Source: Macrostomum hystrix (lineage: Eukaryota > Animalia > Platyhelminthes). Taken from it: 64,000 nt of DNA. Below are positions 27,621-61,222 of this stretch, one piece after another (positions within the stretch are counted from its first letter, which is position 1; every line of letters starts with the position of its first letter). The notes below the pieces were generated by a model. The model saw nothing but the letters and a program-made list of their open reading frames with translations. It was not told the origin of the DNA and did not search any database. The DNA is taken from the NCBI GenBank assembly GCA_950097015.1, contig CATNEN010000025.1, positions 3,906,001 to 3,970,000 of the forward strand, read 5' to 3'. Both the position numbers and the translations under genes were made by a program.

Positions 27621-28880
27621 ACTGTCCGTCGGTTATGACCAAATGTCCACAGGTTATACTCACTGTCCGTCGGTTATGACCAACTGTCCACAGGTTATAC
27701 CCACTGTCCGTCGGTTATGACCAACTGTCCACAGGTTATGACCAACTGTCCACAGGTTATACCCACTGTCCGTCGGTTATGACCAACTGTCCCTCGGTTA
27801 TGACCAACTGTCCCTCGGTTATGACCAACTGTCCACAAGTTATACCCACTGTCCGTCGGTTATGACCAACTGTCAACAGGTTATACTCACTGTCCGTCGG
27901 TTATGACCAAATGTCCGTCGGTAATGACCAAATGTCCACAGGTTATACTCACTGTCCGTCGGTTATGACCAAATGTCCACAGGTTATACCCACTGTTCCT
28001 CGGTTATGACCAACTGTCCACAGGTTATACCCACTGTCCCTCGGTTATGACCAAATGTCCACAGGTTATACCCACTGTTCCTCGGTTATGACCAACTGTC
28101 AACAGGTTATACTCACTGTCCGTCGGTTATGACCAAATGTCCGTCGGTAATGACCAAATGTCCACAGGTTATACTCACTGTCCGTCGGTTATGACCAAAT
28201 GTCCACAGGTTATACCCACTGTTCCTCGGTTATGACCAACTGTCCACAGGTTATACCCACTGTCCCTCGGTTATGACCAAATGTCCACAGGTTATACCCA
28301 CTGTTCCTCGGTTATGACCAACTGTCAACAGGTTATACTCACTGTCCGTCGGTTATGACCAAATGTCCGTCGGTAATGACCAAATGTCCACAGGTTATAC
28401 TCACTGTCCGTCGGTTATGACCAAATGTCCACAGGTTATACCCACTGTTCCTCGGTTATGACCAACTGTCCACAGGTTATACCCACTGTCCCTCGGTTAT
28501 GACCAAATGTCCACAGGTTATACCCACTGTTCCTCGGTTATGACCAACTGTCCACAGGTTATACCCACTGTCCCTCGGTTATGACCAACTGTCCACAGGT
28601 TATACCCACTGTCCGTCGGTTATGACCAACTGTCCACAGGTTATACCCACTGTCCGTCGGTTATGACCAACTGTCCACAGGTTATACCCACTGTCCGTCG
28701 GTTATGACCAACTGTCCACAGGTTATACCCACTGTCCCTCGGTTATGACCAACTGTCCACAGGTTATACCCACTGTCCCTCGGTTATGACCAACTGTCCA
28801 CAGGTTATACCCACTGTCCCTCGGTTATGACCAACTTTCCACAGGTTATACTCACTGTCCGTCGGTTATGACCCACTGTC
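27621..28880. repeat. Minisatellite in calcineurin B intron 1; ~41-bp unit of two related 20-21-bp subunits (CCACTGTCCGTCGGTTATGA + CCAACTGTCCACAGGTTATAC)
   Basis: About 30 tandem copies read directly, with a longer-period block repeated at ~27.87-28.5 kb. Confidence 0.97.
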
Positions 28881-30181: not shown

Positions 30182-30588
30182 AGCAATCTTGCAGTTCCGC
30201 ACGTTTAATTATTTTAATTTCAATTGTATTTAATTTAATTTTATTAATCATGTGAAGGCACATGGGATGGGCCTATGTCAAGGCCAGACTGCAGTCCATG
30301 CACGGAACATCAAAGGCGCTATTCGAAACACACCTAGAAGAGTTTCTCTGGCGCTGGTGCTTCCAGCGGAAGATCTTCGGGAATCTTCTATTCTGGGTGG
30401 CTCACTACTACCCCGTGTAATTGGTGCAGCTTTGCTAGTCGCTGACTCTGACTCTGAGGTTTCCAGCATGTGTCTGACTGTCTCTTGTTGTTTCCTGTTG
30501 CATTGCATTGCATTCCGTTGTCGTTATGTTGCCGTGTGAAACGATTTAAAATAAAAAATAATTAAACGTGCGGATCTGCAAGATTGCC
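30182..30588 (+). mobile_element. Non-autonomous Merlin (IS1595-like) DNA transposon with a transposase C-terminal remnant
   Basis: ~35-bp TIRs (A/G)GCAATCTTGCAG(T/A)TCCGCACGTTTAATTATTTT; degenerate 8-bp TSD GAGAAAAC/GAGAAGCC. An internal frame reads AYVKARLQSMHGTSKALFETHLEEFLWRWCFQRKIFGNLLFWVAHYYPV*, like the Merlin/ISXO2 C-terminus (HG.S......L.EF.WR). Confidence 0.8.
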
Positions 30589-32141: not shown

Positions 32142-32427
32142 TCAAGTGAACAAGTCCGGAGCAGCCACAAGGCAGTCCAACAGACCCGCTGAGTCTGCAC
32201 TGCTGCGCCCGCAGTCCGCATCGATTGAACTTGTCCCATTAACTGTCGCCGTTGCCGTAGCTATGCTTGAAGCCTTTGACTTCACCGCAATACCATGTAC
32301 TCTAGCCAGATGGACGCGCAAATTTGAGCCGGAGATAAGCGCAGCCGGACAGAGGCTGCACGGGTGCCGCAGGGCCGCAGTATGAACGGCCGCATGCGCT
32401 GATCGATGCTCGCGGCGGCAGAATCGC
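32142..32427 (-). CDS. C2H2 zinc-finger protein, last coding exon
   Basis: CAG acceptor in phase 2 completes CPVCDK|RFCRREHRSAHAAVH; next finger CSLCPAALISGSNLRVHLARVH; TGA at 32142-32144. Confidence 0.88.
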
Positions 32428-32806
32428 CTGCGAGATGGGGTGGCGTTCATAGCTGCCTTCTTTTGTTTGGAAAGATACCAAAACAGTTCTGAAGGAATTA
32501 AATGCTGATAGCAAAATATCAATAGAGCATTTTAGGGTTAGGGTAGGGGGTCGAATGATGTAAACTGATTTTAAAACGTTTTTGAACCGAAATCGCGGTC
32601 CGTATTTGACATGTAGGCTAAAAAATTCTAAAGCGTCAAAAATTATTTTCCCTTCTTAAAACAACCAACTGGAATGCTGCACTTAGCGGAGTTGAGACAC
32701 TTTCGACCCAAAACGGCGGCTCATCATACGAGCCGTATTTCATCGAGCCAGTTTATGACAGGAGTTATAAAGGAGTTCTACTTGTCAATAGACCACAACA
32801 ACTTAC

Positions 32807-33125
32807 TTATCGCACACGGGACATGCCAAGGGTCGCTCGTGCCTGGGCGCATGTCGCGCCAACCTATGCCTTTGAAGGTCTTCGTTTCGAGCGAATCGGA
32901 GACCCGGACAGTCGCTGCAGGCGAATGTCGGCTTGGCGTGACGGCTGCGCCGGTGGGCAGACAGAGCGCTGGCGCTTAGAAAGGCGGCGTCGCATTCGGA
33001 ACAGGCGTGACTGCGCGGTAGGCTCGCCAGCTCCCGGTGGCCGTGGCAGCTGTCCAGATGCCGCTGGAGACCGCCGCGTTGACGATAAGCCGAGTCACAG
33101 AAGTTGCACTGGAATGGCGCGGCGC
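32807..33125 (-). CDS. C2H2 zinc-finger protein, internal exon (not in the ORF track)
   Basis: Manual translation: AAPFQCNFCDSAYRQRGGLQRHLDSCHGHRELASLPRSHACSECDAAFLSASALSAHRRSRHAKPTFACSDCPGLRFARNEDLQRHRLARHAPRHERPLACPVCDK. CAG acceptor phase 1, GTAAG donor phase 2, 319 bp. Confidence 0.92.
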
Positions 33126-33672
33126 CTGCAGTAAATTGAAGTGGGACGGATAATTAAGCTTTACTATTTATTTACTTATTTACTTTACTTTTACTTTTTG
33201 TTATTAATATTTTGCGCACGCCACCAACGGGTGCTGATTTATATTTTTTTATTAAATATTTATCGCGGGGAAGTTAAAAAATAGTCATAAACAAGGAAGA
33301 GCAGAACTAATCGCTAGGAAAATTAAAATTAAGCCAAAAGGAGAGAAGTGTAGTATCACACCCGCCAATAAATTGTTCTATGGAAAAGGCTCTTTTCCTG
33401 CTAATCTTCTATATAAGTAGAAGATAACGCATGGCTTTTAGGGTTGTATTCGTACGAGTATAAATCCCGAGAGCCGAAGGCTGTCGAAGAATGATTAAAG
33501 AATGATTTTAACTAATTTTAACAACCCGTAAAAAGACATGCATCATCTCACTTAAATTCCGTGAATTCCGTGGATTTAACCTAATAAATCCCGGAAGATG
33601 CGACAGTTTGATTTAACTTCTGTTTAAATTTGAGCAGGCAGTGCTACGAGTCCAACTAAACTTAAGCAAGAA

Positions 33673-34075
33673 GTGGACCTCGTTTTTAACTTTTTGGCCC
33701 TTACTGCACAATCCTTTCTCATAGGGAATTCTCGGTCTTATAGATCACAATGTTTCGACTTCGATAAAGGCTCCTCGGGTTGCATTATTTTCGAAGAGCT
33801 GACGAATACTCGAGAGATTTTCCAACCAGCGTACATTCGACATTCGGTTTGGAACGGATGAGCTCCAGTACGTGGCGGCCTGGCAAGATTCGGCCACCCA
33901 TTCGACGTTTGAATAATAGTCAAGAGAAGAAATTGTACTATCATGCAATCGTTCTTCGCCACCCCCTTCCATTCAGCGCCCCTATCGCACTGGAGGATCT
34001 TGGAGATCCTTACCTCATGCCAGACGGGGCCCTTCTTAAGTACATCATTGAGACATGGTTCAGTGACGTCAAGTG
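33673..34075 (+). pseudogene. 5' part of an orphan, frameshifted ORF cut by the CACTG element
   Basis: Reads ...LYYHAIVLRHPLPFSAPIALEDLGDPYLMPDGALLKYIIETWFSDVK and continues in frame at 44777 once the insertion is removed. Confidence 0.5.
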
Positions 34076-35649
34076 CACTGTAAATTATAAGTAGCCGCAA
34101 GAGTGGCCGGATGTACCTGATATGGAAGTGGCCGAAAGTAAAATATTTTTGCAAGATTTTAATAATGTAAAATATATTCCAAGGACCATCTTCTTAGTGT
34201 TTAAACACTTTCTATGCCCTGGAAACTCAATATTACGATTGACTGCATACGACATGTGACAATAGTTAATAATTGTGGCCGGTTGTCAATATATGATCTG
34301 AATGTCATGCATTTGAAAGTTTAAGTGATGCAAATTCATACTTCCTTTGATTAGAAAACAAATGATGTAAATCTTCAAAGGCGAGAAATTTAGCGGTGTG
34401 ACAGAGCACAAAAATCTTTGTTGTGGCCGAAAGGCAGCCAATAATTTTGATATACTTACTTTGATTTAAAATACATTATTTATCTGCGTATTGAATTCAG
34501 ATTCCGCCCTCATTTTTTTCACCATTGGTTAGTTTTTTATTGTCTGCTTTGTCATTCGACTCTTTTCTGCTCTGCTCTACTGCATTGTTTTGTACGAGTA
34601 TTTTGCAATTAAATCGTTTGTTGACTTCAGTTACTTCTTCTACATACCTTTTCTTCACTTTGTGTTCTTCATTTCTATCGTATTGGCCTCAGTTTATTGA
34701 CCTTGCTTAGACTTTTAGAGTACGGCGCATTTGATTCATTTCTCAAAAAAATTGTAATTGGTGGCAAATTATTGTGCATGCATTTCGCTATTATGTTATA
34801 TTTGTAGGAAGATATTAAATTTGGTCCTTATCCATGCTGTTTTGGTTCTTTTTGTCTTGCTATGCTATTGACATTCTCAGTGATTTTTGTTTTTATTTAA
34901 TTGTTTCTATTTGTTGTTGACTTATATTGCCTAGCTTATTATCGTATTAGACCTGACTTTCATTTAATTGTCTAATAATTGTCGTCGAAGAGCTGACGAA
35001 TACTCGAGAGATTTTCCAACCAGCGTACATTCGACATTCGGTTTGGAACGGATGAGCTCCAGTACGTGGCGGTGTGTTTAATTGTCTAATATTATAGTCT
35101 AATGTTTAATTGTTTATTTGTCTAATTGCTTAATATTGATAGCAATATAAATGTAATTCGATAGAATCTAAGCAATACATTTATTTTTTTTTGTATTGAC
35201 CTAGGCTTACAACATTGTATGCCTAGTATATTGTACATTGTGAAATCATTTTTATTATCCATTCTAAGTATGTTTTCAACTATTATTTCATATAAATACT
35301 TTTTCTTACACTAATAACAACAATAAAATGGCACCCGAATTGTATCTTTTCTTGTCAAAGATCACAAAAAATGCATGTGAGTAATTCTCACGGAATGCAC
35401 GGTATTTATAAGAGAAGTGTCTCCAGCCGATTCTGTCTGTTTAATAAAAAAAAGAAGCTGCTTTTTGCAACCTAAAATATTTTTAAACAGTTTTTATGCA
35501 TAATTTTATCAAGCTTTGTTAAAATTATTGAGTTCTAATATAAATTTCAGTTGACTGAAATGTGACATTTTATCGGAATACACGTGTCTCTTACTGCGAA
35601 GACTCAATTTATTGCATGCTTTCTTGGAGCACACTAAGCACTAGACGAA

Positions 35650-38600
35650 ATGAGTAATAGAGAGAAACAATCAAAGCGTGGCGGTGAGAGCCGCCATCCA
35701 GACCTTGACAGGAGCTGGCGTATCGCGATCGCGCTCGGCGAGTCCGAGTTCGCCCGAGAAAGCCGGCAGTTCAAAATCCGCCAAGTCATCAAGGAGCATT
35801 AAGCCCACACCCCAGCCAGCAGGCAGCGCGGTCGTAACTCGACAACGCGCCTTGTTACTCAGTGCTTCAGCCGAACGGGCGTTCAAGATTGAGCCGAACC
35901 CTGCCAGTGCTAAACGTTGCCATCAAGAGGGAGGATGATGCCTCGGCGCCGCGCGCTAAGGGGCATATACGAGTCCAGGCTGACGCCCCCCTGGCCAGCC
36001 CTCTCTCTATAGGTCCAGATGAAGAATACCCTGATGCTGTTATGGTGGACATAACACAGGAGATCTCTCGTGTCAGTACAGGCACCAGTAAGATGCCTGT
36101 TGCTAGCGAGTCAGTGGCTACATCTTTAACACCTGGCCGGTTGGACGACCGAATATCCACGGAGTTTAGACTCCGGGCTGAGGGCAAAGAAATGCGAGAG
36201 GAGGCCAGGGCTATTACAGCTGCCGTTATGCGCAATAACGAATTCGACGTCAGGACGGACGGAGGATTTGCGCGGCATGCTAGCCGACTACGAACAAGAT
36301 CTAAATCACCAGAACGACATCATGCGCCGTCAGCTGGAGAATATAGAAAAGGGTTTCAGCTCCTGCCCTCCCACTTCTGAGGAGCAGGAGCGGATAGATC
36401 TGGAAATGGCCGTGGCCGCTTCACTCAATGAACAGGCCAGGCAAGATTTGTTAGGCCTTTACCCAGCGCGTAAATTCGGCGATAAGTGCATCTGGCTGTC
36501 AGGCGTCGTGGATTTCGACTTCACTCCACTGGCCGATGGTGTAACGGCTACCTTTCTAAGCCGTGTTAGCAACAACACGTGGGTAGATGGAGGCAAGGTA
36601 ACGCTTACGCCCGCCGGTGTACCTCAGATCTCCAGCGAGATCCGTCTTAACAGGCCAGATGGGGTGCCCATCATCCACCAGGTCCAAGCCCTATGGACAC
36701 AGAACAACGCAAGAAACAGGACTTTGCTTTATAATATAGCAAGGGATCCTGCTAGGCCCAACGGATCTGTGCGCCCTGAGGAATGGTCTGATTATTGTAG
36801 TGAGCCGTAGCTTAGGTGGCTCCCTTTTCCCGGCACTGAGTGGCTGTCCGGCCCGCCCTCTCTGGCGTTGTCTGGTCTGCTCTCTTTGTCCTCCCTTTCT
36901 CACGGCAGCGCTTGCACTTAGAGTGTGTTTTCTCTCCCCCAGGGATGAGTCATCACCTCTTTGTCCCGCGCTGGCCAGTCCCTTTCTTTGTGTGCACGTT
37001 TGTCTGCACTCAGTCAGCGCATGATTCTCCTCATGTGACTGGCCTCTCTCTTTGTCTCCTAAAGTGCACGTAAACATGTTTACTGCACTTGGGGCTTTGA
37101 TTATAGGACAGGAGCCTACGTAGGAGTGACGTTTCTGGCGCCACTGACGTCAGTTGCTATTTTTAGAAACCACGTGATTTCATCACGTGTTTTCTAACTA
37201 TGCACTGACCCTATGGGAGGCCCCTGCCTATAAAAGAAAGGCCCCGCTCCTCTGGTTCTCTATCCCTTGTTTAAACCTTCTCTTGATAACCGTCGTTCTT
37301 AACTTGTTCACTGTGCCATCAGTGTCTAAGTTTCCTACTTCAGTCTCTGCATGTGACTGCACGTAAGCTCAGTTCTGGCTAAGTCCCGAAACTAACTTAG
37401 CCTTCCACCCCACCATCCGAGCTACGCAGGACACTGACAGCCTGTAATTGCAACTGGAACTCTGCACTGTGTGCTTCTCGAGACTTTGTGACTTCGTTTC
37501 TTTCGGGCCAAGGATCCTTCACCTCACCGAAGGCAGAAGTCCTGACGCCCTGGTGGCAGCGCTACTACTACACTACCTGATATTCTTGGACTTCATATTG
37601 GAGTCCGCCGGATCCTCATTGTTAACAGGACGACCGGTACAACATTATACAGATAATGGTGAAATATCAAGCCGCAAGGTGAACGGCAAGCTGGCTGCTC
37701 ACGGTGAAGCTCACAACACCTGGCTTAATTCACTAACCGGCAGCATGTCGATGTCGGATAAGATAAGTCGGATAAGCCGATGTCGGCTTCTACACGCTAG
37801 CATGGACATTATTTTTCAACGCTTATAATCTCCTGATAACAGTTCGCAACATAGCGCCCCCGCCTGCTGTTCCGCCTCAATTGCATTGGCTGGATATGTC
37901 CATCGCTTTTGCGCCTGCCGCTGCCGGTGTTCTAGTACCTGGCACACTCATCTTCTACCGAGACCAGGGCAACTTTACTCCTGATGAATGGCTTGTTCTG
38001 AGCTGCATCTCGGCTGGCCTACCCGGTGTCGGCTCCCCTGGCATGGTGGCTCCTCTGCCCGCTGGCATTCCGCCTGGAGCTACTCATCCCTACACGCATT
38101 TCATCACCTCGCAGCCAATCACTATATGGGGCGTTGTAGGATCACACCAGCCTGCCGGCATCCTAGCAGCAATCAAGTCTCTGGCCAACACCAACAGGTC
38201 TGACGACGCCGACATGATAAGAGGCTTTTATCGAGCCGGGAGCATCTGCTTCGGCCAAGGACATAATGCAGCAGCTGCAGCACCCAATGTTGTGTCTCGG
38301 CATTATGTCGACTCTTTCTTCAAGACGCGCACCACCGTGCCTTGTCCTTCTGGCCCTAGCCTTGCCAGTCTGTACTTTCACTTCAGGCGGGCAGATAACA
38401 ACCCGCGCCCACCGGTTTCTGAAATAGCTACTCTGTCTCAATCCAGCCCAGGAGAGGTTTACAGTTATGGGTTGCAGTTAGCCGTTACTCTCACTTTGAG
38501 TTTCAGCTCCTTGCTTCACAACTTTAATATCACAGGCCGCAACCTAAGCACCATCTTTTTTGGTGCTCAGCTGGAAATAATCTAAGTTTTTATCGGGCAA

Positions 38601-39683
38601 CACATTTTCACGCGCCCGCCGGAAGCCAGTTCGCCTCTGTTCGTCGGCATTCATCGCTAAGAACTTGTACCTCCGCTTCGGCTTGACTATGTGGCAAGAC
38701 GCGTTCGTATGCGCCAATTGGTGCCACTTATCCCTCGGCCCGCCTGCCATCAATAACCCGCACGACTAATGGTATGATATGTATAACCATAAGATTCCGT
38801 ACCAGTTCCAGCCCCTTGCTGGCTTCGAGCTTCATCGGGCTGTGCCATATGAGTGGGCTATCGGCCTCGGCAAGGTAGAGGCGGACATCACTTCTGACTA
38901 CGTAGTCTTTGGTGCTGGTGTCATGAATCCCACCGGCATGCACACCAATTATGGCTCTGACAATTACGCTAAGCGCGCTGTGTCACCACTCTGGTCTAAG
39001 CTAGAGCTGTACGGCTATCAAGTCATTAATGCGCTCAACCAATATTACAACGCTAACGTGGCTATTGTGATAACTCAGTACCAGTTTCCGCATAACCGCT
39101 CGGCCTCACACGTTGCCGGCGCATATGTTGCTGCACCGCCACTAGGAGCTTCTGCTGTTATTGCCGTTACGCCGTTTCTCAATCCGGCTACTTTGCTCAG
39201 TGCCAGCAATGCCAACCATTTCATATGTCTCCTTCGATTACTACGGCCAACATGATCCCAGGCCTGTCAGCCTTCTTGTTAAGTATGATCGGCGGTAAGA
39301 AAGACTGGAATCTATCAGGCGCTGTATCCCTCGACTTTCATGCCCTGCTGCATCGCGCCTTACAACATGGACTTCGGCCTAGCTGCGCTGGTGCGTCCGG
39401 AGCCCCCTGTCTGCTGAGGCTCACGGGCAAGTTGGCCAAGATGTGCTTCGAGCTCACCGCGACAAAGTGGCTGGCGAAGTGGCTAAAGCCATTGATGCTG
39501 TCAAGCGTGTGTACTGGAGACAAGCACGTTGCGCGAGAGCAGCTGGATGCACGTGCTGCGGCGAGCGCTCAAGCAGTTGACAATGCAGTCAACGCCGCCA
39601 TACGCGTAGCCAATCAAGCGGCGGGTGAGGCTACTGCTGCGCCCCCTGTTCCAGGCAGCGCTCAGGCCACAGCTTTAAACTAG
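35650..39683 (+). pseudogene. Endogenous toti-like dsRNA virus ORF1 (capsid/Gag-like, Pro/Ala-rich), degraded and interrupted by an LTR-like insert
   Basis: Chain of overlapping plus-strand, intronless, GC-richer ORF pieces (35862, 36268, 37448, 37776-38585, 38779, 39225) joined by frameshifts and stops. Ala/Pro/Gly-rich C-terminus; ends at a slippery site directly upstream of an RdRp. Capsid identity is inferred from position. Confidence 0.65.
36796..37433 (+). mobile_element. LTR-like insertion with a Pol II promoter, inside viral ORF1
   Basis: Starts TGTAGTGAGCCGTAGC and ends GCTACGCAGGACA. CT-rich, non-coding. AP-1 TGAGTCA 36946, CRE TGACGTCA 37145, MEF2-like CTATTTTTAG 37157, E-boxes CACGTG 37171/37184, TATAAAAG 37229. 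No clean TSD found. Confidence 0.55.
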
Positions 39684-39729
39684 GCTGTGCACGCTTGACC
39701 GGGCAGTACAGCAACTGTTGTCTGCTTGG
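39674..39729 (+). promoter_or_regulatory. -1 programmed ribosomal frameshift signal (U UUA AAC) plus predicted H-type pseudoknot
   Basis: GCT TTA AAC TAG: heptamer 39674-80 in X_XXY_YYZ phase just before the ORF1 stop. Stem1 GCTGTGC 39684-90 / GTACAGC 39706-12; stem2 CCGGGCA 39699-705 / TGCTTGG 39723-29. The -1 frame is open to 40027. Confidence 0.75.
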
Positions 39730-41232
39730 GTTCGAGGCTGATCGTAACTGTTTATTTGGCGACAGTCTCATAGCGTGTCTTAACTCTTTTACTCATCTCC
39801 AAATCAAAACTGACTCACGTTTTTTGCGGTCTAATTTCTGTTGCTTTTTTGTCGTGTCGTGCATGATATTGCTTCCGCTGTACCGTATTCTACTTTATTT
39901 TTTATGCCTCAAACATTTACTCCAGTTTTCTGCCCAGGTTTTAACATACATTATTCATTTGCTTTCCCCCATCAATGCACACGTGATCACCTGCTGGCTG
40001 TCGAGTTGGAATATCAACGAGGCATGATACCTCAAGACCTGTACGACGTATGGTTTCGAATTAAATTAAATCGAATGTGACTGATTTTGGCTCTAGATCA
40101 ATGCTGTACTGGGACGTGCGCTAAGATTTTCTAGTTAGGCGATTTTCAATGCAGCTCTGTTAACGAGTATTTGCCGTCTGGTGTCACTGCCGATGACTTG
40201 CTAAATGACGGGTTGCCGCTCAAGCGTTGTTGCCGTGGTTGCTACCACCTGGATTGGAGGCCTGGCTTGCCCGGCCATCTGTTGGAGCGGTGTTTCGACT
40301 TTGTAGATGATGCTAATAGGACTATGACTTCCATGCGTGCTAGCCATTTGATTGATTGTGCCCGAAATTTAGGTAAAGCAGAACTATGGGAGTCATCTTT
40401 GTCCTCAGTGCTGAGTGTTTTGCCTGTTGGGTCGCTAGATCACACGGTCGCCACGTGTCTACTGTTCGCCGTCAGCGTTTTTGAGAATTGGCGACGCTAC
40501 AGCGAGCTGATGAGGCGCGATGCAGCGTGTTGTATCACCGTAGATGGCTTCGCAAAGTACACAAAAGCAATATCAGTTGCCATGCGCCGTACCCAACGTT
40601 GGGTGGATGGTTCACCGATGAGCGTATCGAGCGTTGCTATCTGTGCGTATCTGGAAATGGCTACTGGCAGGAACCGCACCCTGACTGATTGGGATGCCGA
40701 AATTAAGAAAAGGTGCCACGACGTACGCGTCATTTTAGATTTACTTGATGACGGCGATTATCATCGGAGGCTTGAAGATGCTGTTAGTGCGCACTCGCGA
40801 GTTGATACCTGGCCGAGTCCACGACATCACTACAAGGAGTACGTCGCCACTAGATACCTACATATAGCGTCTGGATCGAGCTGCGGCGCTAAAGCTCACA
40901 GTTCTGATGGCAAGCAGCACGTTTCATCTCAATAAGCGTGGGCTTTTTGAGTGCTTGCCCGCTGCCGACATTTTGACCTGGCTTGACCTGGAGCCTCTGC
41001 TGCTGTCTATCGGCAGTGAGAAAGGTGAAACTGGCAAATCACGCGAAATCCTCGCTTCTAACATTGTAGCCTACGTCATTATGGACTACACTTTGCTCGG
41101 CATAGAACCTAAGTTTCATAACATCTCAGGCGTTAAGTTAGGCCTCGGCAGCTACGACGAGTGCGCCGCTATGAGGCACCGATTGCTTAACATCTGTTTA
41201 GAAGGAATAGAAAGTATGATGATCGATTATGC
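39674..41232 (+). pseudogene. Endogenous toti-like virus RNA-dependent RNA polymerase, truncated at motif A
   Basis: Recognisable Totiviridae/Ghabrivirales (RdRP_4-type) motifs in order: YLEMATGRNRTLTDWDAEIKKR, YVATRYLHIASGSS, LNKRGLFE, EKGETGKSREILA..Y..L...E, then MMIDY (start of the DYxDFNSQH motif), after which viral sequence stops. Two internal stops and two frameshifts. Confidence 0.85.
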
Positions 41233-41376
41233 CGCTTCGCTCGCCTCGTGACCATTATATGCGACCTGACTTTCTGACCATAGAATGCGCATTATAAAGC
41301 TATTATCTTATACGTTAACTCCACTTGCGCCAAATCGCATAGCGAAATCTCGAATGCCATAGACAAATATTCAGTA

Positions 41377-42209
41377 CAGGGCCCGATTTCATAAAAAACC
41401 TACAAGCGACAAGTGACAATTGGACAAGTTACAAGCAACAAGCGACAAGTGACAACGATTTCGGTTTCATAAACCGAAGCTCGCCCTTCGTGTTAAAAAA
41501 TAGATCGTGTCTGGTGTCTATGGGCAAACTGTGAGAAATCGATCCATTTTTGTGGAGACACTTGTGTTGCCTCCTTAGTCTATGGTCCAAAGCCAAACTC
41601 CCGGCGGAACTCGAAAATCTGGTTCACTTTTTAAAGCTACGTTATCATTCTATCACAGTATACTAAATATTCTCTGATCGCAAGTCATTATATTTTTATA
41701 AAGTGTTCTTACTGTTTGATTATGAAGGAGAAAGAGGCTGCCAAGAAATAATAGGTCCAATTATTTGCAGCAAGTTCTCCACGTGATCAGTTCGGAGTCT
41801 AAAACGCTCAGAAAAGTAAAAGCCTTGGGGCTGGAAATTAATACGTTCCTTGAATGTCCTTGGAAATTGTCTAGCCAGCATTGCCAACTCCTCTTTATCT
41901 TCCGTGTCGGACATGGCGAAAGCAAATATAGTAGAAGTTTGCGATCTGTGTTACAAGTGTCCCAACCACTTGTCAAACTCGGATGAATAAAAGAGCCGAT
42001 TCTGCGCAGAAGCAACTGATTCAGCAAATATCTATGGTCAAAACCCCGAGAAAAGCGCTTTTAATTTGTCGAATTTTACTTGTCACTTGTAACTTGTAAC
42101 TTGTCGAATTGACAACTTGTAGGTCATGTTTATGAAACGCATTAATTTACGGAATTGTCACTTGTCAGTTGTAATTTGTCGGACAAGTGCTTTATGAAAT
42201 CGGGCCCTG
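41377..42209 (-). mobile_element. Internally deleted PIF/Harbinger element
   Basis: Perfect 19-bp TIR CAGGGCCCGATTTCATAAA; ACAAGTGACAA/ACTTGT subterminal repeats. Minus ORF 41720-41914 (RTFKERINF...FSERFRLRTDHVENLLQIIGP) resembles the Harbinger transposase N-terminus. TSD unclear. Confidence 0.75.
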
Positions 42210-42288
42210 AAAGTCATTTAAGGCACACAAACGCTAGCAAGACTAGACTAGAATGTATGATTGACACTAAGTTCGCAGTGCGCAGCGC

Positions 42289-42639
42289 TTTTTACTTAAT
42301 TGCAGGGGGGCCTGGGGCACTTGACGCACAAGCGCAGGAACGGCATGCCCCCAGGCCGGCGAACTAGGCGGGAGTCGCCCATCGCGCCATCTGGACCCCT
42401 GGACACAGGCACCTCACACACAGCCGCAAGCCAAGCGGGGAAGGGGGCGGCAGCCGGAGTGCCTCTCATCCCAGGCCCGCACACGCACAGAGCTGACCAA
42501 ACCAGGGAGGACTTACATGCCTGAAGGGTAGGGACGAGAGGACCAAGCCACGCGCGCAGAAACCTCGCCGCTCAGAGCACGCATGGCTGGTGCACACCCG
42601 CCCCACCCCCCATACAACGCCTCACACCCGGCCCAACGC
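42289..42639 (-). mobile_element. Short GC-rich retroposon (SINE or 5'-truncated LINE 3' end)
   Basis: Exact 13-bp flanking duplication CAGTGCGCAGCGC (42276-88 / 42640-52); A-rich tail on the minus strand (TAAGTAAAAA). Confidence 0.65.
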
Positions 42640-42804
42640 CAGTGCGCAGCGCATTCGAGCCAAGACGTTATCAGCACTCAAAACTTAGTGTTATACGCAT
42701 TGTAAAATGCGAATTAGGTCTCTGACTTTTGGCCATAGACATCCATTTACTGCACGATTTTTTATTTTCATCGGAAAAAATCGAAGGACTGCCATAGACA
42801 TACG

Positions 42805-43080
42805 AATGCTGACATCTGTAAAGTGACTGGCCACAAGCAAGTGAAGACAGTAGAACGATATCTGCAATTCGGAAGCAGACGAACGTCCGAGATGCGGGCT
42901 ATGTGCAACTCATTGCACTCATCGCTTCATGAAGCCAATGCTTCGAACGGCCCCGATCGATTGAAGATGTGTCAGCCAGCGGAGCACGATGTTTCGAACA
43001 GTGGTAGTTCGACCGAGCCTCGGACATGTTATCTTCAATCTCAACTTCAATGGAAACGTGAGTGGGTGCACCTTTAATTT
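42805..43080 (+). pseudogene. Crypton-type tyrosine recombinase C-terminal fragment
   Basis: ADICKVTGHKQVKTVERY contains the TGH...Y catalytic end of YR/DUF3504 proteins. Confidence 0.6.
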
Positions 43081-43224
43081 AACGAAATGATTGCAGCTGC
43101 ACAATAGCAAATGATTTGACATCAATAAGATCTTAAAATTACGAGCTATTTCGATACTGACGAAAGTACAAGTAATTAATGTGTTATATCGTTGTCCTGT
43201 TGAATTTTTAATAGAAATATACGC

Positions 43225-43850
43225 ACTGAAGAGATGTCACAGAGCAGGGCATTCTTGGTGATTCTAATCCTAAGCAACTGCTGTACACTGTCATCTTTAC
43301 GCTAGGCAAGGCTTTTGGCTTGCGTGGTGGTAGAGAACTACATGAACTGGAGTTTCAGAAGCAAATTAAAATGGGATTTGACGCAGGAGAGGAATCTTTA
43401 CTATTTAATGAGGCGACGGTCACCAAGACTTGCCAATGTGGCCTGAAGACTTATAACAGACCTTTAAAGACTGGAAAGATATTCCTCACTATTGATCATC
43501 GGTTCTGCACCGTGTGTCTCTACAATAAATATAGCGAAAGAAGACCGCAGGAATGTACCAAATCATGTCTGTTTCTTAACTGGTTTCGCAGTGAGGAGGC
43601 TGTAAAGAAGGGTAAATGGTACCAGAATCAAGCGGTCGGCCGACATACAATCGACCAAGTTGTCAAGAGTCTAACTGCTAGTCTACCTGTACCTACTGGA
43701 GGACGCTACACTAACCAGACGCTAAAAAAACGTGCGCAACAACCTTGCGAGACGCAGGCCTTGAACGAGCTGAAATTGGTCGAATAACCGGTCACTCGTC
43801 AAATGCTCTGGAGCGCTACATCGGTTCGTCCAAGGACACTATTGAATGAA
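43225..43850 (+). pseudogene. Crypton (DUF3504/ZMYM-KCTD1-like) tyrosine recombinase remnant
   Basis: QGILGDSNPKQLLYTVIFTLGKAFGLRGGRELHEL...FCTVCLYNKY..RRP...WYQNQAVGRHTI...RYTNQTL, then frameshifted ITGHSSNALERY. Confidence 0.8.
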
Positions 43851-44774
43851 AATCTTCAATTAACGTCGAAAAATAGAATGCGTCAAGCTCAATTGTTATC
43901 CGTTCTATTGTTATGTTAAAAATATACGAGTGAATTTTCGCGTTCCTGAAGAAATATAATAATATAGCTGTTCAGCTGTTCTAATATACTAGCGAGCCCA
44001 TTATCTATATAATGGTCCTGCTAGCGAGCCCATTATACAGATAATGCGCCAGTGATACTTCGGTTTGACCATAGACAAGACCATTCCCTAAAAATAAGCG
44101 GACCAATATACGAGCTTTTTGGCGCAAGTGGAGTTTATATGTCGCTTCATTTCAGGCATATTGGACTATTTCTTTTACTCTGTGATAAATATACTAAGCA
44201 GGGATTGCATTGCCATATTCGTTTTTTATTAATCTTAATACTTTTAATACAATAGTTTCATTTCTTCGATGTCCCCCACTTTGCTATGTCCTAGGGGCGA
44301 CGATCATTCTGTGGATTTCAGAATCGGTTGAAATGACTTGTGAAGTAATATTCAAGTACCTTTATGTCATTTTGTTGGAAGTTTTGAATACAAGTTTCAT
44401 TTTTTATCTATGCCATTGCTTTAAAGTTATACGATACGCTCGTATACAATAAAAATTTGGAATGGTATTTTTTATTTTATAGACATTTTGCTAAGTGAAT
44501 CTAGACTTCTAAGCTATGTCAAAGCAAAATTTTAATTTGTAGAGCCTATTGAAATTAAATTTAATGAGCTTCAAAAGACGAAGACGAAGCTGGTCCAGAA
44601 GCTGGTCCGCGAGTGATTTATCATCCATAATTTCTGAAGCTGTTAAATATGGTACATAAAGTGGCCCCTTTTGGCCACTCTTTGTGGCCCGGATTAGGAC
44701 ACTTTCGGCCCCTCTCGGCCCCTCTCGGCCTATTTACAACCGGCCTCCACTTCGGCCACTTATATTTAACAGTG

Positions 44775-44885
44775 TGTGCCATTCTAGGGATCAAGATTGA
44801 AGCCGCAGTCAATGGCTACAACATACCGTCCATCCGTGCGCTGTTGAACAACCTGCATGGAATGGATATCCTGTCCTATCTCTAA
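44775..44885 (+). pseudogene. 3' part of the orphan ORF split by the CACTG element
   Basis: CAILGIKIEAAVNGYNIPSIRALLNNLHGMDILSYL*, in frame with ...WFSDVK at 34073 after removing the element and one TSD copy. Confidence 0.55.
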
Positions 44886-45692
44886 GTATTGGCAAGGGCT
44901 ATGCCTGCGTCAGTTAAGTGTTGTCTTGTTAGGTAGAAGCAATCTAATGCATAAATTATGCAAATTGCCGAAGGTAGCTTAAAACTACCAAGAGGTTCTG
45001 GAAGCACGCTTTTTAAGCATTGATAATTAGCACCAGTTTAGAGCAGGCTGAAACCATCGTGCGCGCCTTTCTAACCGTTCTGCTAGCACCTAGCCTACAT
45101 GACATTTATGTTGCTCTTGCAGATGGCAACCATGATGCGCCGCTGGCCGTAATTCGTTCCTTCGTTACGGGTAATCAGCCTATCGAAGAGACTGAGCTCC
45201 AGCTCCGCAATTAGCCAAACTTTCAGCGCCAAGACAAGACCCTTATAAGATCATTACCGTTCTGGCAATGGGTCGAGAGATTTTGTCCTCACTTATGAAT
45301 AGAAAAGCTTGTGAACTTAAAAAACTTTTCCGATATACTTTCGTATATATGAGCAATATGAGCAACGCACAGCATCAGTTTCGACTCTTTGAGTTAGCAT
45401 GCGCTAGACAGAATCAAAATTAACATCAAAATCAATACCTCGAGTTTAAATTTAAGAATAAATTCTCGTTACTTTAGAAACACCTCATACAACTAAATAA
45501 CTCGTATTTTTTTTTTAATTTGCAGTGCAATACTTCAAATCTTTTCATTATCTGTTTCATCAATTCTGCTGCAAACAACAGCACTTATCGTTTGACTTTT
45601 GCTAGATTTACATACCATTTTTGCGACGCACAAGAATGAAATCTGAATGATTTTTAAATGACTGTTTCATGGTGTTATTATATATATATTAC

Positions 45693-46721: not shown

Positions 46722-48767
46722 ATGGTGAAGTGTGAACTCAATTATGTAAACAGTCTCCTAGCCCTCCAATCTGACTCCATACCATTAAACCATTTAATGT
46801 CACCAATACGCTCCAATAACGAGAGTGAAAATGAAAATCTCGAGAACATTGATACACTGTAAATCATAAGGGTGCGCATGGGGTCCGTTTTGTCAAAACG
46901 GACCCTGGGGTCCGAAATATATGTTTTTACTTCGCACCTCTCACACATACAGTAGCACATAAATGTTATGTGCAATGGCTTAAAATGCATCTTAAGTGAA
47001 GGTAACGCTTGTTTCTCAGTCTTTTATACTAATGTAAACTTCATGCAATGTCCAAGAACTGCGTATGAACTGATTACATAGTTTCCATTTTATTTTCACT
47101 ATTCTTCAATGAAAATTTTCATTTAATGCTTACAAGGTAAAACGAAAAATAAACAATTGGCATAAAAGATTATTATAACGTTTCTTTTGTTGTACTGTGC
47201 CTGTGTGTTTCGAGACTTTGATCCGTACGCAGTTGACAATTTAAAAAGCAACGTGCTCTCATCACCGTGCCGTGTTTTATAGTTAACTCTGCTATAAGTT
47301 TCAGATTTTCGGCCTTGCGTAGCTGTATAATTGTAGCAATCATCGTGATAATGTAGTTAAATTTTGTATAGTACAAAATTAGTAATATAATTGCAAACAT
47401 CATTATCTTCGCAATTGCCAATACCTGATTAGCAAAGCCTGCAGATTGCTGCCTCCTGCAACTCGTTTTTGGGAAATAGTATTCGCCTTTTTCGTTTTTT
47501 CCTTTTGGCGGGTTCTTTCTGTATAATAAAAAGGAGCGTGAGCGACCTGAAAAAAGTGGACCTTTTTCGGACCTCCTTGAAAAACCGGACCCCTATGGGT
47601 CCCTATATAGCGACGGTCCGGACCCTCGTCGGACCCTTTTTCGGACCTTTTTAAAATTACAGTGTATCATCTATCAACTCCTGAGCGAAGTGGATATCGA
47701 CTTGTTCCCCGGGGAGCCCTCAACAATTCCAAAACCCACAGTGACTGAATCCTAGCCAACAAAATGAGTCGCCTCCCGAGCCGAGTTATTAGCAGAGCCT
47801 GCCCTGAAGAAAATTGCATTTGAAAAGACCACAAGGAATTGTATACTGAAAACTTAGTCCGAGACAGCAGTCAAGGTGCCAGTCAGTGTATCAGTGTCAC
47901 CCTGCCGGAGCGTCACCCTCCCGGAGCAAGGTCCAGCATGGAGCTATCTGCCTTGCAACTGCTCTGGCCCATCGCGCCTTGACCCTCAAGGCAGCCACAG
48001 CCACAGCAGCCGTCACCCAACATTACAAGATAGCCAACCTGCCCTTAACTCCCTGCCAAGCCAAGGAGGAATCGAAGATTATATGACCCGGCCACAGGAA
48101 CTTCTTCCCCAACAAAGACTCAGCACTCAGCAGCAGCATCCTCAACGAGCCAGCAGTCAAATGAGCCCCATCCCTCTGTGAGCAACATACTCCAAAAGCT
48201 GAAGAAATTCTACCGCCCAAAACCGATCTCACCTCTGCTCATGGACAGCGAATCTGACAAAGACTCTGCCCCCCTGTCCGGAACTGCCAAAATAGAAGAT
48301 CCCAGATCTCAGAAACATCTTGACCAAGCCGTGCGCATCGTCAATCGTTGGAGATCCCGCCTTGCCGGTCACCATGCCTGCAGACCACCGCCGCCCCAGC
48401 AGCGAGACATCGGTGCCAATATCAGCGACGCCCTGAGCTCGATTCCACAGGAACAACACGAGCATTACTTTGGCTAATCAAGCGGATGGAGACCTTCCAT
48501 CTTCGCGTGCCCTACCTAAATCTGGAGCAGTCTCTGCCGGATCGTGACCAAGGGCGCATAGTCCTAACGGAATTGATGGACTGCTATTTAACGGAGCAAG
48601 GTATCGCAGTCTGGCAACAAGCCACCACCCACCCACTCCGAGATGCCAGGAGAGGCATGTATGTATGTTTCTACCCATTCCTGCGCCAGGAGATACGTCG
48701 TATTGGCAACCAAGTTGGCTGGCCAGACATCGACAAGTTACCCGAGGAATTTGGCTTTCAACAGTGA
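46722..48767 (+). pseudogene. Degraded orphan coding region(s), probably TE-borne
   Basis: Frameshifted plus-strand protein-like pieces, ending ...LTELMDCYLTEQGIAVWQQATTHPLRDARRGMYVCFYPFLRQEIRRIGNQVGWPDIDKLPEEFGFQQ*. No family recognised. Confidence 0.35.
46855..47664. mobile_element. 810-bp CACTG-ended (CMC-EnSpm-like) non-autonomous element
   Basis: TA|CACTGTAA...TTACAGTG|TA with GGACC/GGTCC subterminal repeats. Removal restores the frame ENLENID|IIYQLLSEVDIDLFPGEP. Confidence 0.85.
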
Positions 48768-49056
48768 ATAGCTTATGAACTTTGTGACTATGAACATTAT
48801 CTGCATTTTAAATGTTTTATCCACTCTGTTTTGCATTGCTCATTTACTCATTTGCTCTGTTTATTAAAATCTCACGCGAATGCATGCTAATTTTCTTGTT
48901 TAATTTTAATAAGTAGGAAAGCCCGTTGAGGCAGCCAATAATTAGGATCTTTGCTGCCTTTGTGTATTAAATATACACAAACAAATTTAATTCTCGCCAC
49001 TTTTCTTCCTCACGTGCTAGCTACTTATCGTAATATTCACGCAATGTAACGATATA

Positions 49057-50298
49057 CACTCAGCAACATTTAAAACGCAACACTCTAACTAGAAGAAAAA
49101 TCAACTCACTCAGAAGAGTCAAAGTGCATAGTCTATGGTTCAAATCGAGCTTCAGAAACGCGTGTAGCCTCCTCTCGCAAGTAACAGGGCGTTGACTCGA
49201 CGTGGCATTCCCAGAACAAGGCGTCGAAAAAAGTCCTGGGGAATTTCCTGCCACGCGTTAGCAACAGCGTTTCGCAGTTCAGCGACTGTCTGCGGCGGAT
49301 TCTGCCGTTGAACACTCCGCTTGATAAAGGCCCAGACATGTTCAATTGGGTTCATATCAGGGGATCTCTAAGGCCACCGAAGATGTAGTTTGCAGTTTGC
49401 GACGCCACCAAAGTGGTTGTTAACAAAAGGGAGCAGATGCGTCTGCAGCAAACGAGCGTACTCATCGCCGTTCACGTTTGCGTCTAAGAAAACCAGCTGG
49501 GTCCTGCCTCGCATTGAAATCCCTGCCCACACGTGTACGGAGGGTCCCTGCCCATCGCAGCTTTGCACGTGCTGCTGCAGAAGCTCTTGCCGTGGCTCAC
49601 GCCAGACGCGAATTCGACCATCACTGCGAAAAAGACGAAACCGACTCTCGTCTGTAAAGATAACGCGCTGCCACTGTCCTTGCCGCCAGTGCGCCCGCTG
49701 CATGGCCCACAGTTCCCTGTTAGCGACATGTGCAGGACTCAGGCGCGGCCTCCTCCGCATTTTTCTTGACCGCAATCCTGCAGCGTGAATCCTGCGGCGA
49801 ATCGTCTGCGCGCTGAGAACGTTGCCTCTGCGGCTTCTCTCTGCCCACATCAATCGCAGGAGTGTGGCAGGCAGTGTGGGGTTTCCACGCACTATTCTCA
49901 GCAGGCGTCGATCTGCCCTCGCTGTTGTACTGCGAAGTTGGTGAAGCACCGTACCTTTTCTCGCGTGAGCCACGCTTCCAGTGGCTCTGCTCTTCTGTAG
50001 CAGACGTAAAACTGTTGAAGGCGACCTCCCGAAGTGGTTCGCAACTGTTCGAAGAGTACAACCTGCTTCCAACATTCCGACTGCTCGCCATCTTTCCGCG
50101 TCTGTCATCTGTTGAACCATTCTCTCAGCTGGATCACTCTGTCTGAAAACAAACCATAGTCATCGCCCTGTTACTTGCGAGAGGAGGCTACACGCGTTTC
50201 TGAAGCTCGATTTGAACCATAGACTATGCGCTTTGACTCTTCTGGGTGAGTTGATTTTTCTTCTAGTTAGAGTGTTGCGTTTTAAATGTTGCTGAGTG
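49057..50298 (-). mobile_element. Tc1-family DNA transposon, full length but inactivated
   Basis: ~135-bp TIRs starting CACTCAGCAACATTTAAAACGC; TA TSD on both sides; encodes a Tc1 transposase. Confidence 0.95.
49152..50120 (-). pseudogene. Tc1 transposase pseudogene
   Basis: HTH N-terminus, VIFTDESRF, SVHVWAGIS, WP..SPDMNPIEHVW. A deletion/frameshift near 49370 removes the second catalytic Asp (QDDNA motif). Confidence 0.92.
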
Positions 50299-50391
50299 TA
50301 TACCGATTTTTTTCGGCAGCAATTGCGTAAGCTGAAGCCGCGTAGCGGCTGAAGCTTAGTAGAGCAATTGCTGCCGAAAAAAATCGGTATA
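50299..50391. repeat. Nested palindrome/hairpin upstream of the Crypton recombinase
   Basis: Perfect 28-bp arms TATACCGATTTTTTTCGGCAGCAATTGC (50299-326 / 50364-391) around TAAGCT/AGCTTA and AGCCGC-GTA-GCGGCT. Confidence 0.9.
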
Positions 50392-50636
50392 TGTCATTAT
50401 TGTACCCTTTTGACTTCCCTTGTCTATGGCCCAGACATAGTGCGGATGCTGAGTATGAAATGCGATTGTTGCCGGAATGTTGCCGGAGAGCAAATTTAGT
50501 CGCTCTCTAAATGAAAGGGTTGTAGAGATAATTAATCGTTTATGGCAAATTTAAAGGACAGTGAAGACAGCTAGCCTGGCTGCCATGAGTTAATTCTCAA
50601 GTTGATTTTGAGCTTGAATTAATTCTCCTATTCGGA

Positions 50637-52058
50637 GTGCAAATAGGAAAAGTAGCTATGATTCACTACGCAAACATTCCTGGCGGAGAAATATGTGGAC
50701 TCTCCACGGACGAGTTGGCTTTTGTCACCCGAGAGTCGAGCACGCGCTACGTTCTGGAGATGGACAACCTGGATGCGTCGTCCAGTTCCAACGGGCTGCC
50801 TGAGCTACGTAGCGAAGATCTGGAAATGTTGGACCGACTTGAGAGTGACTCAGTGCCGAAATCGACCGAGACGCAACGGAAGCTTCACGTGGCAAGGTTC
50901 CGACAGTTCCTCAACGAGAAGGGGCTCTGCCAGGAGTTTGAGCGTGTTCCGGATCGATTTTTGAACGATTATCTGAGGCTTTTCTATTCATCTCTTCGAA
51001 AGCAGGATGGAACTTACTATGCGCCAAAGTCTCTCATCTGTTTTCGTGCGGCTATTCAACGCCACCTGCAATCCCCGTCCGTTAATCGCCAGGTGAAGCC
51101 TTCAAGCGTTGCAATGGCGTTCTTGTCGCCATGGTGAAAATGTACATGGAAGGACACGTCGAGAAGGTAGACAAATACGAAGCTATTTCCGAGGACGACA
51201 TGCAAACAATTCGCGCATACTTTGACCGAACGTCCCTTCGTAAACTGCAGGACGAAAACATTTTCAACGTTCTGCTCCATTTCGCACTGCGAGGCCGAGA
51301 AAATCTGAGAGAGTTGACACCTGGATGTTTTGAGATAGTGTCAGAAGGAGGTACGGAGTTTGTACGCGTCGCTGTCGCCATGCTGTCGAAAAATGTTAAA
51401 GCGTCGTTGAACGAGAAGGCATTCAAGGATCTCAAGTTAGCTCGGATGTACAGCGTGCAAGACAAAACTGTTTGTCCCGTCGAAGCCTTTAAAATGTACG
51501 TCTCTCAACTACCGAATGGATGTGAGGTGTTGTTCCCAAGGCTCAATAAGTCTGGCTTCTCAGCCTGCCAACGACTCGGCAAAGATTCACTTGGAGACTT
51601 CATGAAGAATCTGAGTGCGTGTCTGGCTCTGCAGCGGAAGTACACCAACCATTGTGTGCGAGTAACCACGGTGAGTAAAGATCGCATGGCCTACTCACTT
51701 CAGTAAAACTGTAAGAATACTGTCTTACCCAACTGCTGAAACTTAGGTGAACTGTTTGGCCAAGGCCGGTTTCGATAATCAAGCGATTACACTAATGACG
51801 GGACACAAGAATTCGAGCTCAGTGGATGTATACAAGCGGCGAGACATGGACTGTGTGGCCCGAATGAGCGCTTGTCTGGCTGCCTATGGGTCCAAAGTCA
51901 CCAAGATTGACGACGATGCGGAATCCACCATCGAAAGTGTGACAACTGGGTCTGATAGAGGCGAGCTGATGAAAGCACCCGAGGGCGGCCAAGACCTGCC
52001 GAGAAGCCTCTGTGGTGGTCAGTTCCACAACTGCACATTCAACTTTTACGGAAAGTAA
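50637..52058 (+). pseudogene. Crypton tyrosine recombinase gene with one intron (51671-51746) and one frameshift (~51105)
   Basis: Catalytic set ALRGRENL, NHCVRVT, TGH, DVY; N-terminal FYSSLRKQDGTYYAPKSL...RAAIQRHL; phase-0 GTGAGT...TTAG intron joins RVTT|VNCLAKAG. Confidence 0.9.
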
Positions 52059-56335: not shown

Positions 56336-57654
56336 CAATTTGAACTTATTTAAATATGAATAATTTCTCGGAAAATACGTATATGCTAAATTTAACAAAA
56401 GACGATTAATACATACGGATTGAATGCATACACTATCAGTAATTCTTAAATGCCATTCAAAATAAATAAATACATACTAAGATGATTCAGAAATACACTG
56501 ATATAATATAAATATTTCACTAAACCTAATCCGTCACAACGGGAAGGTTATAGTTCATGCAACTCACACCTCATAATCATATGTCATGGGCATCAATATG
56601 TAAAAATATTTGCAAAAGTAATTAATAATTAGATTAGCCTTCTTAAGTTTATCACACAACGCACTGGGAAAAAATTCTACCAATCATTTAATTGTCAGAC
56701 TCCATCTCATCATCTCAGTGTCTTTAGCAGCAAGAGACAAATGAATGATATTAATTCAATGACTAAAAGGTAAGTTTATTATGAATCTGCATAATTGTGT
56801 GCTGGAAAAAATTGACACAAAAGACATGCTTAGAGATGATATGAATAAAGATTGAGGAAGCCCGGGTGTCGTGACCGCGCATTAATCTCTTATTTTTTCA
56901 TGCAACCTAGATGGCAAGAGCTGGTCCATCTCTCACTCAGATCTCAAACCACTGGGGCAAACGCACTGCAAGCAAGTCCAAAAAGGGGACCGCGGGTGGC
57001 TTTGAAGCTTTGCACAGCACGCAATGCACCATGGCATGCTGAGGGGGCTTAAAACGCTGACGACTTATCAAGTGGAGGCATGGGCCAATCTAAGCTGTGT
57101 TCATGGCATCGGCAGCCCTGTTTCATGCGGTCTTTCAGAAAATCTTCATTCTGAAACAGACAAGCTGCTGACTTGATGCAATGGGAAAAGAAATCTTGAT
57201 ATTTACGCACGCGGGGCCTAAGGGAGAGAGACAGCTGGCGGATATTTTCTGTCTCACCCACACCTTGGTCCCTTAGTCCTACTTTCTTCCCCCCCTCCGC
57301 CCACACAAGGTATGAATGTGAGCAGATACCTCAGCAGAGATCTTCATCAGCATGGCTCTCCAACACTGGGTGGTGCGGGGTGGCCGCTGCAGAGATCCCA
57401 ATTAACTGCATGGCTATTTCACGGGTTCGCCAAAAAGCTAGGAGAGCTGTGATTGGTCAGCGAGTCTACTAGAATAAAAAAAGTCCCCCGTGGAGGTACG
57501 CATAAGACAAGAGGGCAATAAAGGTACTATTTAGAAATATTGAGGCCGATGCAGACAAGACAGACGGAGAAGGACAAGTGTAGTAAGGACATTCGCAGAC
57601 AGACAGGAGTGACAAGCTGAGAACGGGAGAGATTGAAACCTCACCATCCAGACA

Positions 57655-57994
57655 ATGAGCGACAGTGGTGTTGATACTAGCGGTCGGATCAATGATCAGG
57701 ACGATGTGGAAGTTGACGCTGAAGACGACAGCGGCCTCGACAAACTTGACGCTAGTCTTGACAGACGGCGATACAGCATACTGCGTCGAGACCAGCTTCG
57801 AAGGCTACACGAGCTGCTCCGGCGACAAGTAACGCTTCGCGGCCGTCCGCAGCCGTCTGGCTTGGGCTCCAGGAGCCCTGTGCTGCGACTACAGCTCAGC
57901 GACCTGCTGCGACGGCTGCGCGCTCGTCTGTCGAGTGCCGGCGTGCCTGTGCGAGATGTACGCCTCAATGGAAGCAGCGCCAGCTTCGTCATTG
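57655..57994 (+). CDS. TENT5: Terminal nucleotidyltransferase 5 (FAM46) exon 1
   Basis: ...VRDVRLNGSSASFVI is the FAM46 signature; GTGAGT donor in phase 1. Confidence 0.93.
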
Positions 57995-61160: not shown

Positions 61161-61222
61161 CAGTGTCTTCATTCTAAAAGCCTCCTAGATCTCCCCGATA
61201 ACCTGTTCCTGTTGCCTTCCAG

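Follow-up and report, generated by a model that had tools for sequence, protein, structure and literature searches.

Animal DNA transposons can hold foreign DNA between their terminal inverted repeats (TIRs), and such Pack-TIRs have been surveyed by Tan et al. (2021, PMC8277862). In this survey, the captured sequence came from less than 15 kb away in 160 of the 281 animal Pack-TIRs (56.9%), only four (1.4%) are multicopy, and the single-copy ones arose mostly by gap filling that is independent of transposition. In Scheffersomyces yeasts, the virus-derived array STORM was proposed to be the cargo of transposon-associated transfer; the sections available describe no recovered target duplication (PMC13756089). 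For non-retroviral endogenous viral elements (EVEs) of Aedes, the accessible text reports enrichment in clusters of PIWI-interacting RNAs rich in long terminal repeat (LTR) elements, not in DNA transposons (PMC5497376), and in one cluster of toti-like EVEs (ToEVEs) of a planthopper a piggyBac element lies between them (PMC10636211). Here we analyse 64,000 nucleotides of Macrostomum hystrix DNA (assembly GCA_950097015.1, contig CATNEN010000025.1, positions 3,906,001 to 3,970,000 of the forward strand), called the window below, in which a transposon with CACTG-type ends encloses the remains of a toti-like virus. A truncated toti-like EVE is indeed nested in a non-autonomous EnSpm-like element, and this arrangement most likely arose in place; both kinds of element are already known.

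The analysis supports the presence of a non-autonomous element of the CACTG type around a toti-like EVE. CACTG is found at position 34076 and CAGTG at position 44774, and the dinucleotide TG abuts both ends on the outside. The two ends are complementary at 27 of 35 bases, the highest value among the 2220 CACTG/CAGTG pairs past base 26000 (the runner-up reaches 22), and at 31 of 40 bases when the comparison is extended; similarity between the arms is limited to about 40 bp. A 22-nt end pattern allowing up to three mismatches matched these two sites only in the window, and nothing in 100 shuffles. The GGCC motif occurs four times in the first 400 bp and eight times in the last 200 bp, compared to a background of 3.1 per kb (26-64 kb), and the clusters at both ends point inward. 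Thus, the imperfect TIRs of approximately 40 bp, the GGCC subterminal repeats and the TG duplication noticed in a first-pass annotation of this DNA are confirmed. Longer duplications of 3 to 9 bp were tried and rejected. A 2-bp duplication is found by chance in 149 of 2220 random pairs and is therefore weak evidence alone. No second copy of the element was detected in the window by the end-pattern and pair searches, and the pattern had no match in metagenome contigs, a collection that would rarely include this host.

Repbase classes non-autonomous elements by their ends and duplication length, as stated in the available part of its description (PMC4455052). The termini of the CAC..GTG type with TIRs, a criterion for EnSpm/CACTA elements and for the CMCT group, and the subterminal repeat arrays typical of EnSpm/CACTA are both present here. 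The 2-bp duplication falls inside the CMCT range of 2-5 bp and is off the 3 bp canonical for plant and fungal EnSpm elements. Animal EnSpm elements give 2-bp duplications, for which our literature search returned no paper. The CMCT group is characterised by CA..TG ends and duplications of 2-5 bp, with 3 bp in fungal EnSpm elements, in the consulted sections of PMC12730594. A DDE transposase with C(2)C and H(3-4)H motifs, encoded by the element itself or by an autonomous partner, is a further criterion of the group, and none was found inside the element. The element is thus EnSpm-like, not a proven EnSpm member.

A second, cargo-free element with CACTGTAA ends sits 2 kb from the virus-bearing one, and no cargo was seen in it. 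It contains 11 GGTCC/GGACC subterminal repeats in 810 bp, and its first 11 bases agree with the left end of the main element at 10 positions. This second CACTGTAA element belongs to a related superfamily and to a different family. The existence of two such elements makes the end type credible. Moreover, the ends of the cargo-free neighbour are more imperfect (15 of 35 bases), so that imperfect ends appear to be normal here.

It was previously argued that the boundaries are firm, because excision of the element restores an open reading frame (ORF). Indeed, the frames of the flanks are in phase across the element, with 102 open codons on the left and 35 on the right. However, 10.6% of 20000 random position pairs did equally well, at least 35 open codons on both sides were found in 23% of the random pairs, and in 49% when the left side was fixed. 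A homologue of the flanks was not found in Pfam, PDB sequences, Atlas features, viral contigs, the capsid and RNA-dependent RNA polymerase (RdRp) profiles described below, or by a word-indexed protein search; the latter blank is weak evidence, because the same tool missed both RdRp pieces that the full HMMER search matched. Restoration of the ORF is at chance level and does not strengthen the case for the boundaries. With 5 stops in 126 codons and 5 in 135, the flank frames that were read have a near-random stop density and are of no use for dating. Both flanks (33560-34075 and 44777-45340) show moderately high G+C content and coding-like stretches; they may represent what is left of a gene from a different mobile element or a virus.

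Between the arms, a capsid region is followed on the same strand by an RdRP_4-type polymerase, which is the order known from toti-like viruses. The ORF at 40868-41248 matches Pfam RdRP_4 with an E-value of 8.9e-5, a value at the curated cut-off, and a full HMMER search with the ORF at 40135-40932 returned 82 relatives (cluster representatives) at E ≤ 0.001. RdRP_4 is carried by 15 of the 17 relatives that were scanned. Names were available for six of the 20 relatives looked up: the Murri virus RdRp, Hangzhou paraphaenocladius impensus totivirus 1 and Mute swan feces associated toti-like virus 2, the remaining ones being one sandfly and two Caligus genome proteins. Murri virus, treated among the mosquito totiviruses in the accessible part of PMC9324324, is among the closest named relatives of the fossil's pieces, and the fossil is only 30-45% identical to any relative compared. 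Profiles built from the upstream ORFs of the relatives match the capsid region at 38148-38561 (independent E-value, iE, 4e-11) and 38680-39072 (iE 6e-16); one row of these profiles (the P0037 N-terminus) is unrelated to the others and merely dilutes them. The RdRp pieces had no close relative in viral or metagenome contigs, which again would rarely include this host, and no match in PDB, while an Atlas search with the capsid piece gave an uninformative top score of 0.78. In an RdRp tree (FastTree, 67 rows) the fragment has a long branch that pairs with a second long branch, and we claim no placement.

The fossil is decayed and truncated. Positions 20-454 of the 977 in the RdRp profile are matched, the similarity breaking off at 41233, at motif A, while motifs B and GDD are located farther downstream in the six relatives checked. 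When the C-terminal RdRp halves of nine relatives were used as queries, nothing in the window was better than E 0.64. Thus, a full-length RdRp containing motifs A, B and C (GDD), which is expected of a complete genome, is lacking, and the designation as an RNA-virus genome, given in the first-pass annotation, has to be abandoned. Since the contigs of the relatives are 6.4-7.4 kb long and their RdRp ORFs comprise 1045-1066 amino acids, approximately the last quarter to third of the viral genome seems to be missing. The previously proposed length of 5.6 kb also needs correction, although the toti-like affiliation holds: a 644-bp LTR-like insert lies inside, and the viral part amounts to approximately 4.9 kb once it is taken off. 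Only the stretches 38148-39072 and 39940-41233 are backed by homology. The regions 35650-36795, 37448-37825 and 39096-39680 showed no significant homology (best iE 0.046) and are considered viral from their G+C content and continuity. The homologous parts contain three stops in 697 codons and, in addition, frameshifts. The fossil is unable to encode a working polymerase, and any function would be that of a small-RNA source, a candidate role.

The interior harbours further insertions (Table 1). At the TG...CA ends of the LTR-like insert in the viral 5' region no target duplication was found; the insert could be a captured retroelement complementary DNA (cDNA) end or a recombination product. The 2.8-kb block downstream of the virus, for which piggyBac-like is a candidate label, holds an 833-bp element, the 3' end of a retroposon and a DUF3504 fragment. 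The short motif CCATAGAC is repeated in this block at 41357, 42733, 42792 and 44069, and the block may be either a very small TTAA-type element into which a Crypton inserted, or an element that carries a recombinase and has inverted ends. The Crypton and retroposon remnants suggested earlier are both found, the first by its DUF3504 match (E 4.3e-14) and the second by a 3' end with a 13-bp target duplication. For the proposed Harbinger remnant, the element with 19-bp perfect inverted repeats exists, while its name is not confirmed: no target duplication and no Pfam match were found for it, and the putative Harbinger-like label follows from its end pattern. In agreement with the first-pass annotation, none of the 30 six-frame translations of the non-viral interior matched transposase families, the sole strong match being DUF3504; Rfam and tRNA scans gave nothing significant. 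After subtraction of all inserts 2209 bp are left, and the stripped element is a non-autonomous element of approximately 2.2 kb.

How did the viral sequence enter the element? The earlier reading left two possibilities, a transposon with viral cargo or a virus that landed in a resident element. We favour the second, albeit with some reserve: the transposase-less CACTG element would have been resident, and the 3'-truncated toti-like fossil was most likely copied in after its insertion. The flank copy, the nested insertions and the 1.4% base rate of multicopy Pack-TIRs speak for this choice. The flank copy, which was not recognised in the earlier reading, is an 88-bp signature of cis gap filling; it is set between 15-bp direct repeats (34963-34977 and 35077-35091) together with short local additions, and its source lies 1194 bp away. 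It could only enter with the element already at this site, and therefore this copy of the element takes up DNA in place. Copying of nearby DNA into a TIR element, the hallmark of single-copy Pack-TIRs, is thus seen for the 88-bp filler, not for the virus. In line with in-place capture, four other insertions are nested inside, and the related 810-bp neighbour is cargo-free. Non-retroviral EVEs require reverse transcription. Because of this requirement, the 88-bp copy, the Pack-TIR base rates and the distribution of EVEs in Aedes, a small resident element patched with viral cDNA is the simplest history.

According to this history, a non-autonomous EnSpm-like element of about 2.2 kb would have inserted at a TG site. 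Its AT-rich interior may then have taken up approximately 4.9 kb of viral cDNA, made by the reverse transcriptase of a host retroelement, without target duplication and with replacement or interruption of internal sequence; the reverse-transcribed cDNA probably served to patch a DNA break. A search for direct repeats shared by the viral junction zones yielded none exceeding 7 bp. The interior would have kept absorbing DNA, namely the LTR-like piece inside the virus and the TTAA-type element with the further elements nested in it, and the copy of the neighbouring flank would be the latest event. Several points weigh against in-place capture of the virus. No evidence places the viral insertion before or after the last transposition, and intact ends with a duplication are equally expected after a later jump of a 7-kb element. 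The 88-bp filler, being 100% identical to its source, is younger than the decayed virus and thus tells how the locus behaves, not by which route the virus came in. Further, the base rate of Tan et al. comes largely from short, old vertebrate elements and may not fit an invertebrate with active elements, and the 5' viral junction was placed by the G+C shift only.

A later jump is at the centre of the alternative that the virus was captured elsewhere and a 7-kb composite was moved to this site in trans by an EnSpm-type transposase, as an animal Pack-CACTA. This alternative agrees with the intact state of both ends, of the subterminal repeats and of the 2-bp duplication, and the related element at 46855-47664 shows that the superfamily was active in this genome. 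Mobilisation of Pack-CACTA elements is established in plants (PMC6379663), and for yeast an array that derives from a totivirus and lies between Tc1/mariner repeats has been put forward as cargo (PMC13756089). However, a second copy was not seen in the window or in the searchable collections, which would rarely include this host, multicopy elements make up only 1.4% of animal Pack-TIRs in the accessible data (PMC8277862), and remodelling after insertion is evident from the filler taken up in place and from the nested inserts. We therefore judge cargo mobilisation to be unlikely, if worth keeping in mind. The stronger claim, that an animal CACTG-type family captured most of a double-stranded RNA (dsRNA) virus genome and spreads it as multicopy cargo with clean ends and duplications, is similarly doubtful.

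The low similarity of the arms, which share just about 40 bp with imperfect ends (31 of 40), would also fit a composite bracket, that is, a resident EVE flanked by two insertions of the same family which have lost their inner ends; the one shared duplication then implies that the block moved once. Fusion of neighbouring elements is a route to plant Pack-CACTA. STORM has a similarly eroded bracket of several repeats, as described in the accessible text (PMC13756089). On the other hand, neither inner ends nor additional copies of the end pattern were present in the window at up to three mismatches, the cargo-free neighbour has still more imperfect ends (15 of 35), and the TG pair fits a single insertion, making the bracket improbable. 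Finally, one could suppose that the ends pair by chance or through an assembly artefact, the virus being merely located in a repeat graveyard. The 149 of 2220 random pairs with a 2-bp duplication and the chance level of the restored ORF are compatible with this, and the exact 88-bp copy could in principle be a mis-assembly. Nevertheless, the match between the ends beats all 2220 pairs by 5 bases and has no equal in 100 shuffles, GGCC clusters point inward at both ends, and an independent element with a like end type and a 2-bp duplication is located nearby. Chance or artefact is thus a very remote explanation, and in-place capture remains our preferred one.

Table 1. Features of the virus-bearing element and its cargo-free neighbour (window coordinates).
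Feature	Position	Strand	Remarks
Left copy of the 2-bp target duplication (TG)	34074..34075	+	Letters outside the left end
Left terminal inverted repeat (CACTG...)	34076..34115	+	Followed by GGCC repeats to ~34430
Copy (88 bp) of 33791-33878 in the left outer flank	34985..35072	+	100% identical; cis filler
Probable 5' part of viral ORF1	35650..36795	+	G+C rises from ~0.26 to 0.5-0.6, broken ORFs; putative viral origin
LTR-like insert, 644 bp	36796..37439	+	TG...CA, imperfect terminal inverted repeat, TATA-like box; putative label
Toti-like capsid region, several frames	37440..39683	+	Homology at 38148-38561 and 38680-39072
N-terminal half of toti-like RdRp	39940..41233	+	2 in-frame stops, 1 frameshift near 40900; ends at motif A
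Nested element with 18-bp perfect inverted repeat	41319..44133	.	Repeats 41317-41334/44118-44135; flanks TTAA/TTTA
833-bp element	41377..42209	.	19-bp perfect terminal inverted repeats
G+C-rich retroposon 3' fragment, short A tail	42289..42639	-	13-bp target duplication (42276-42288, 42640-42652)
Crypton-type tyrosine recombinase fragment (DUF3504)	43230..43787	+	E 4.3e-14
Right end with 8 GGCC repeats and terminal inverted repeat (...CAGTG)	44663..44774	-	
Right copy of the 2-bp target duplication (TG)	44775..44776	+	
Second, cargo-free element, 810 bp	46855..47664	.	TA/TA duplication, GGTCC/GGACC repeats

The locus of the element is repeat-dense and lies 8 kb from a 25-kb satellite, a setting that fits in-place capture. 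This satellite is an array of a 26-bp unit, which occupies approximately 25.8 kb (1-25838 of the window) with copies about 93% alike; two smaller arrays with units of 41 bp and 16 bp are located at 27621-28880 and 59731-60619, respectively. A Tc1/mariner-type element at 49050-50305 has inverted repeats of approximately 148 bp (97%) and a transposase ORF at 49368-50159. It is followed at 50589-51706 by a second recombinase remnant, of the DUF3504/QRICH1-like type, in two frames and with weak Pfam matches. Further inverted-repeat elements are present at 63180-63950 (200 bp, 92%) and 30183-30587 (33 bp, 97%). Pieces of a C2H2 zinc-finger ORF were detected on the minus strand at 32142-33153, and a gene for a TENT5/FAM46-type nucleotidyltransferase (PF07984) with at least two exons at 57637-62325. 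TENT5 is linked to animals, and together with the Tc1-type transposase and the zinc fingers it gives the window the look of animal DNA.

If the virus was indeed captured in place, which is the likely reading, the locus adds to the non-retroviral EVEs that lie in repeat graveyards, with unusual nesting and no new mobile element. Its value would then be modest: it documents a toti-like lineage not sampled so far and is a clear instance of DNA uptake by a TIR element through repair. If, in turn, the element proved to be multicopy, it would show, with clean boundaries, that a cut-and-paste transposon can amplify the fossil of an RNA virus in an animal, and it would point to a DNA-transposon route by which non-retroviral virus fossils are amplified and relocated, for example into small-RNA clusters. 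In the open-licence literature, with Repbase entries outside the scope of the search, no report was found of a multicopy CACTA-type element that carries a dsRNA-virus fossil in an animal. The sole precedent found is STORM with its YEET repeats in yeast, for which the accessible text gives no recovered duplication. The first-pass statement that dsRNA-virus fossils as transposon cargo are undescribed is thus partly superseded by this yeast case (PMC13756089).

Compared to the known systems, the locus resembles the single-copy animal Pack-TIRs, as the accessible part of PMC8277862 describes them, in being a non-autonomous TIR element with foreign DNA, capture in cis from the near flank and short microhomology at the filler junction. 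Unlike in those elements, the main insert here is 4.9 kb long and derived from an RNA virus, which needs reverse transcription or an earlier EVE as a template. With STORM and its YEET (Tc1/mariner) repeats it shares totivirus-derived capsid and RdRp sequences between the terminal repeats of a DNA transposon. However, STORM is, in the sections available, a domesticated and expressed array of four ORFs, which moved between species and has an adjacent transposase pseudogene (PMC13756089), whereas we describe one fossil, decayed and truncated, in an animal-like genome; its host element ends in CACTG, is flanked by a clean 2-bp duplication, lacks a transposase and gives no evidence of movement. The CAC...GTG ends and the subterminal repeats are shared with EnSpm/CACTA elements and the CMCT group, and the duplication falls within the 2-5 bp of that group; the differences are the duplication of 2 bp instead of the 3 bp given for fungal EnSpm elements (PMC12730594), CACTG instead of CACTA, and the lack of a transposase for placement. 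Last but not least, as in the arthropod toti-like EVEs of planthoppers (ToEVEs, PMC10636211, accessible in part), sandfly and Caligus, fragments of Murri-virus-like capsid and RdRp genes are fixed among transposons. Unlike the arthropod ToEVEs, the fossil described here is enclosed by both ends of one DNA transposon.

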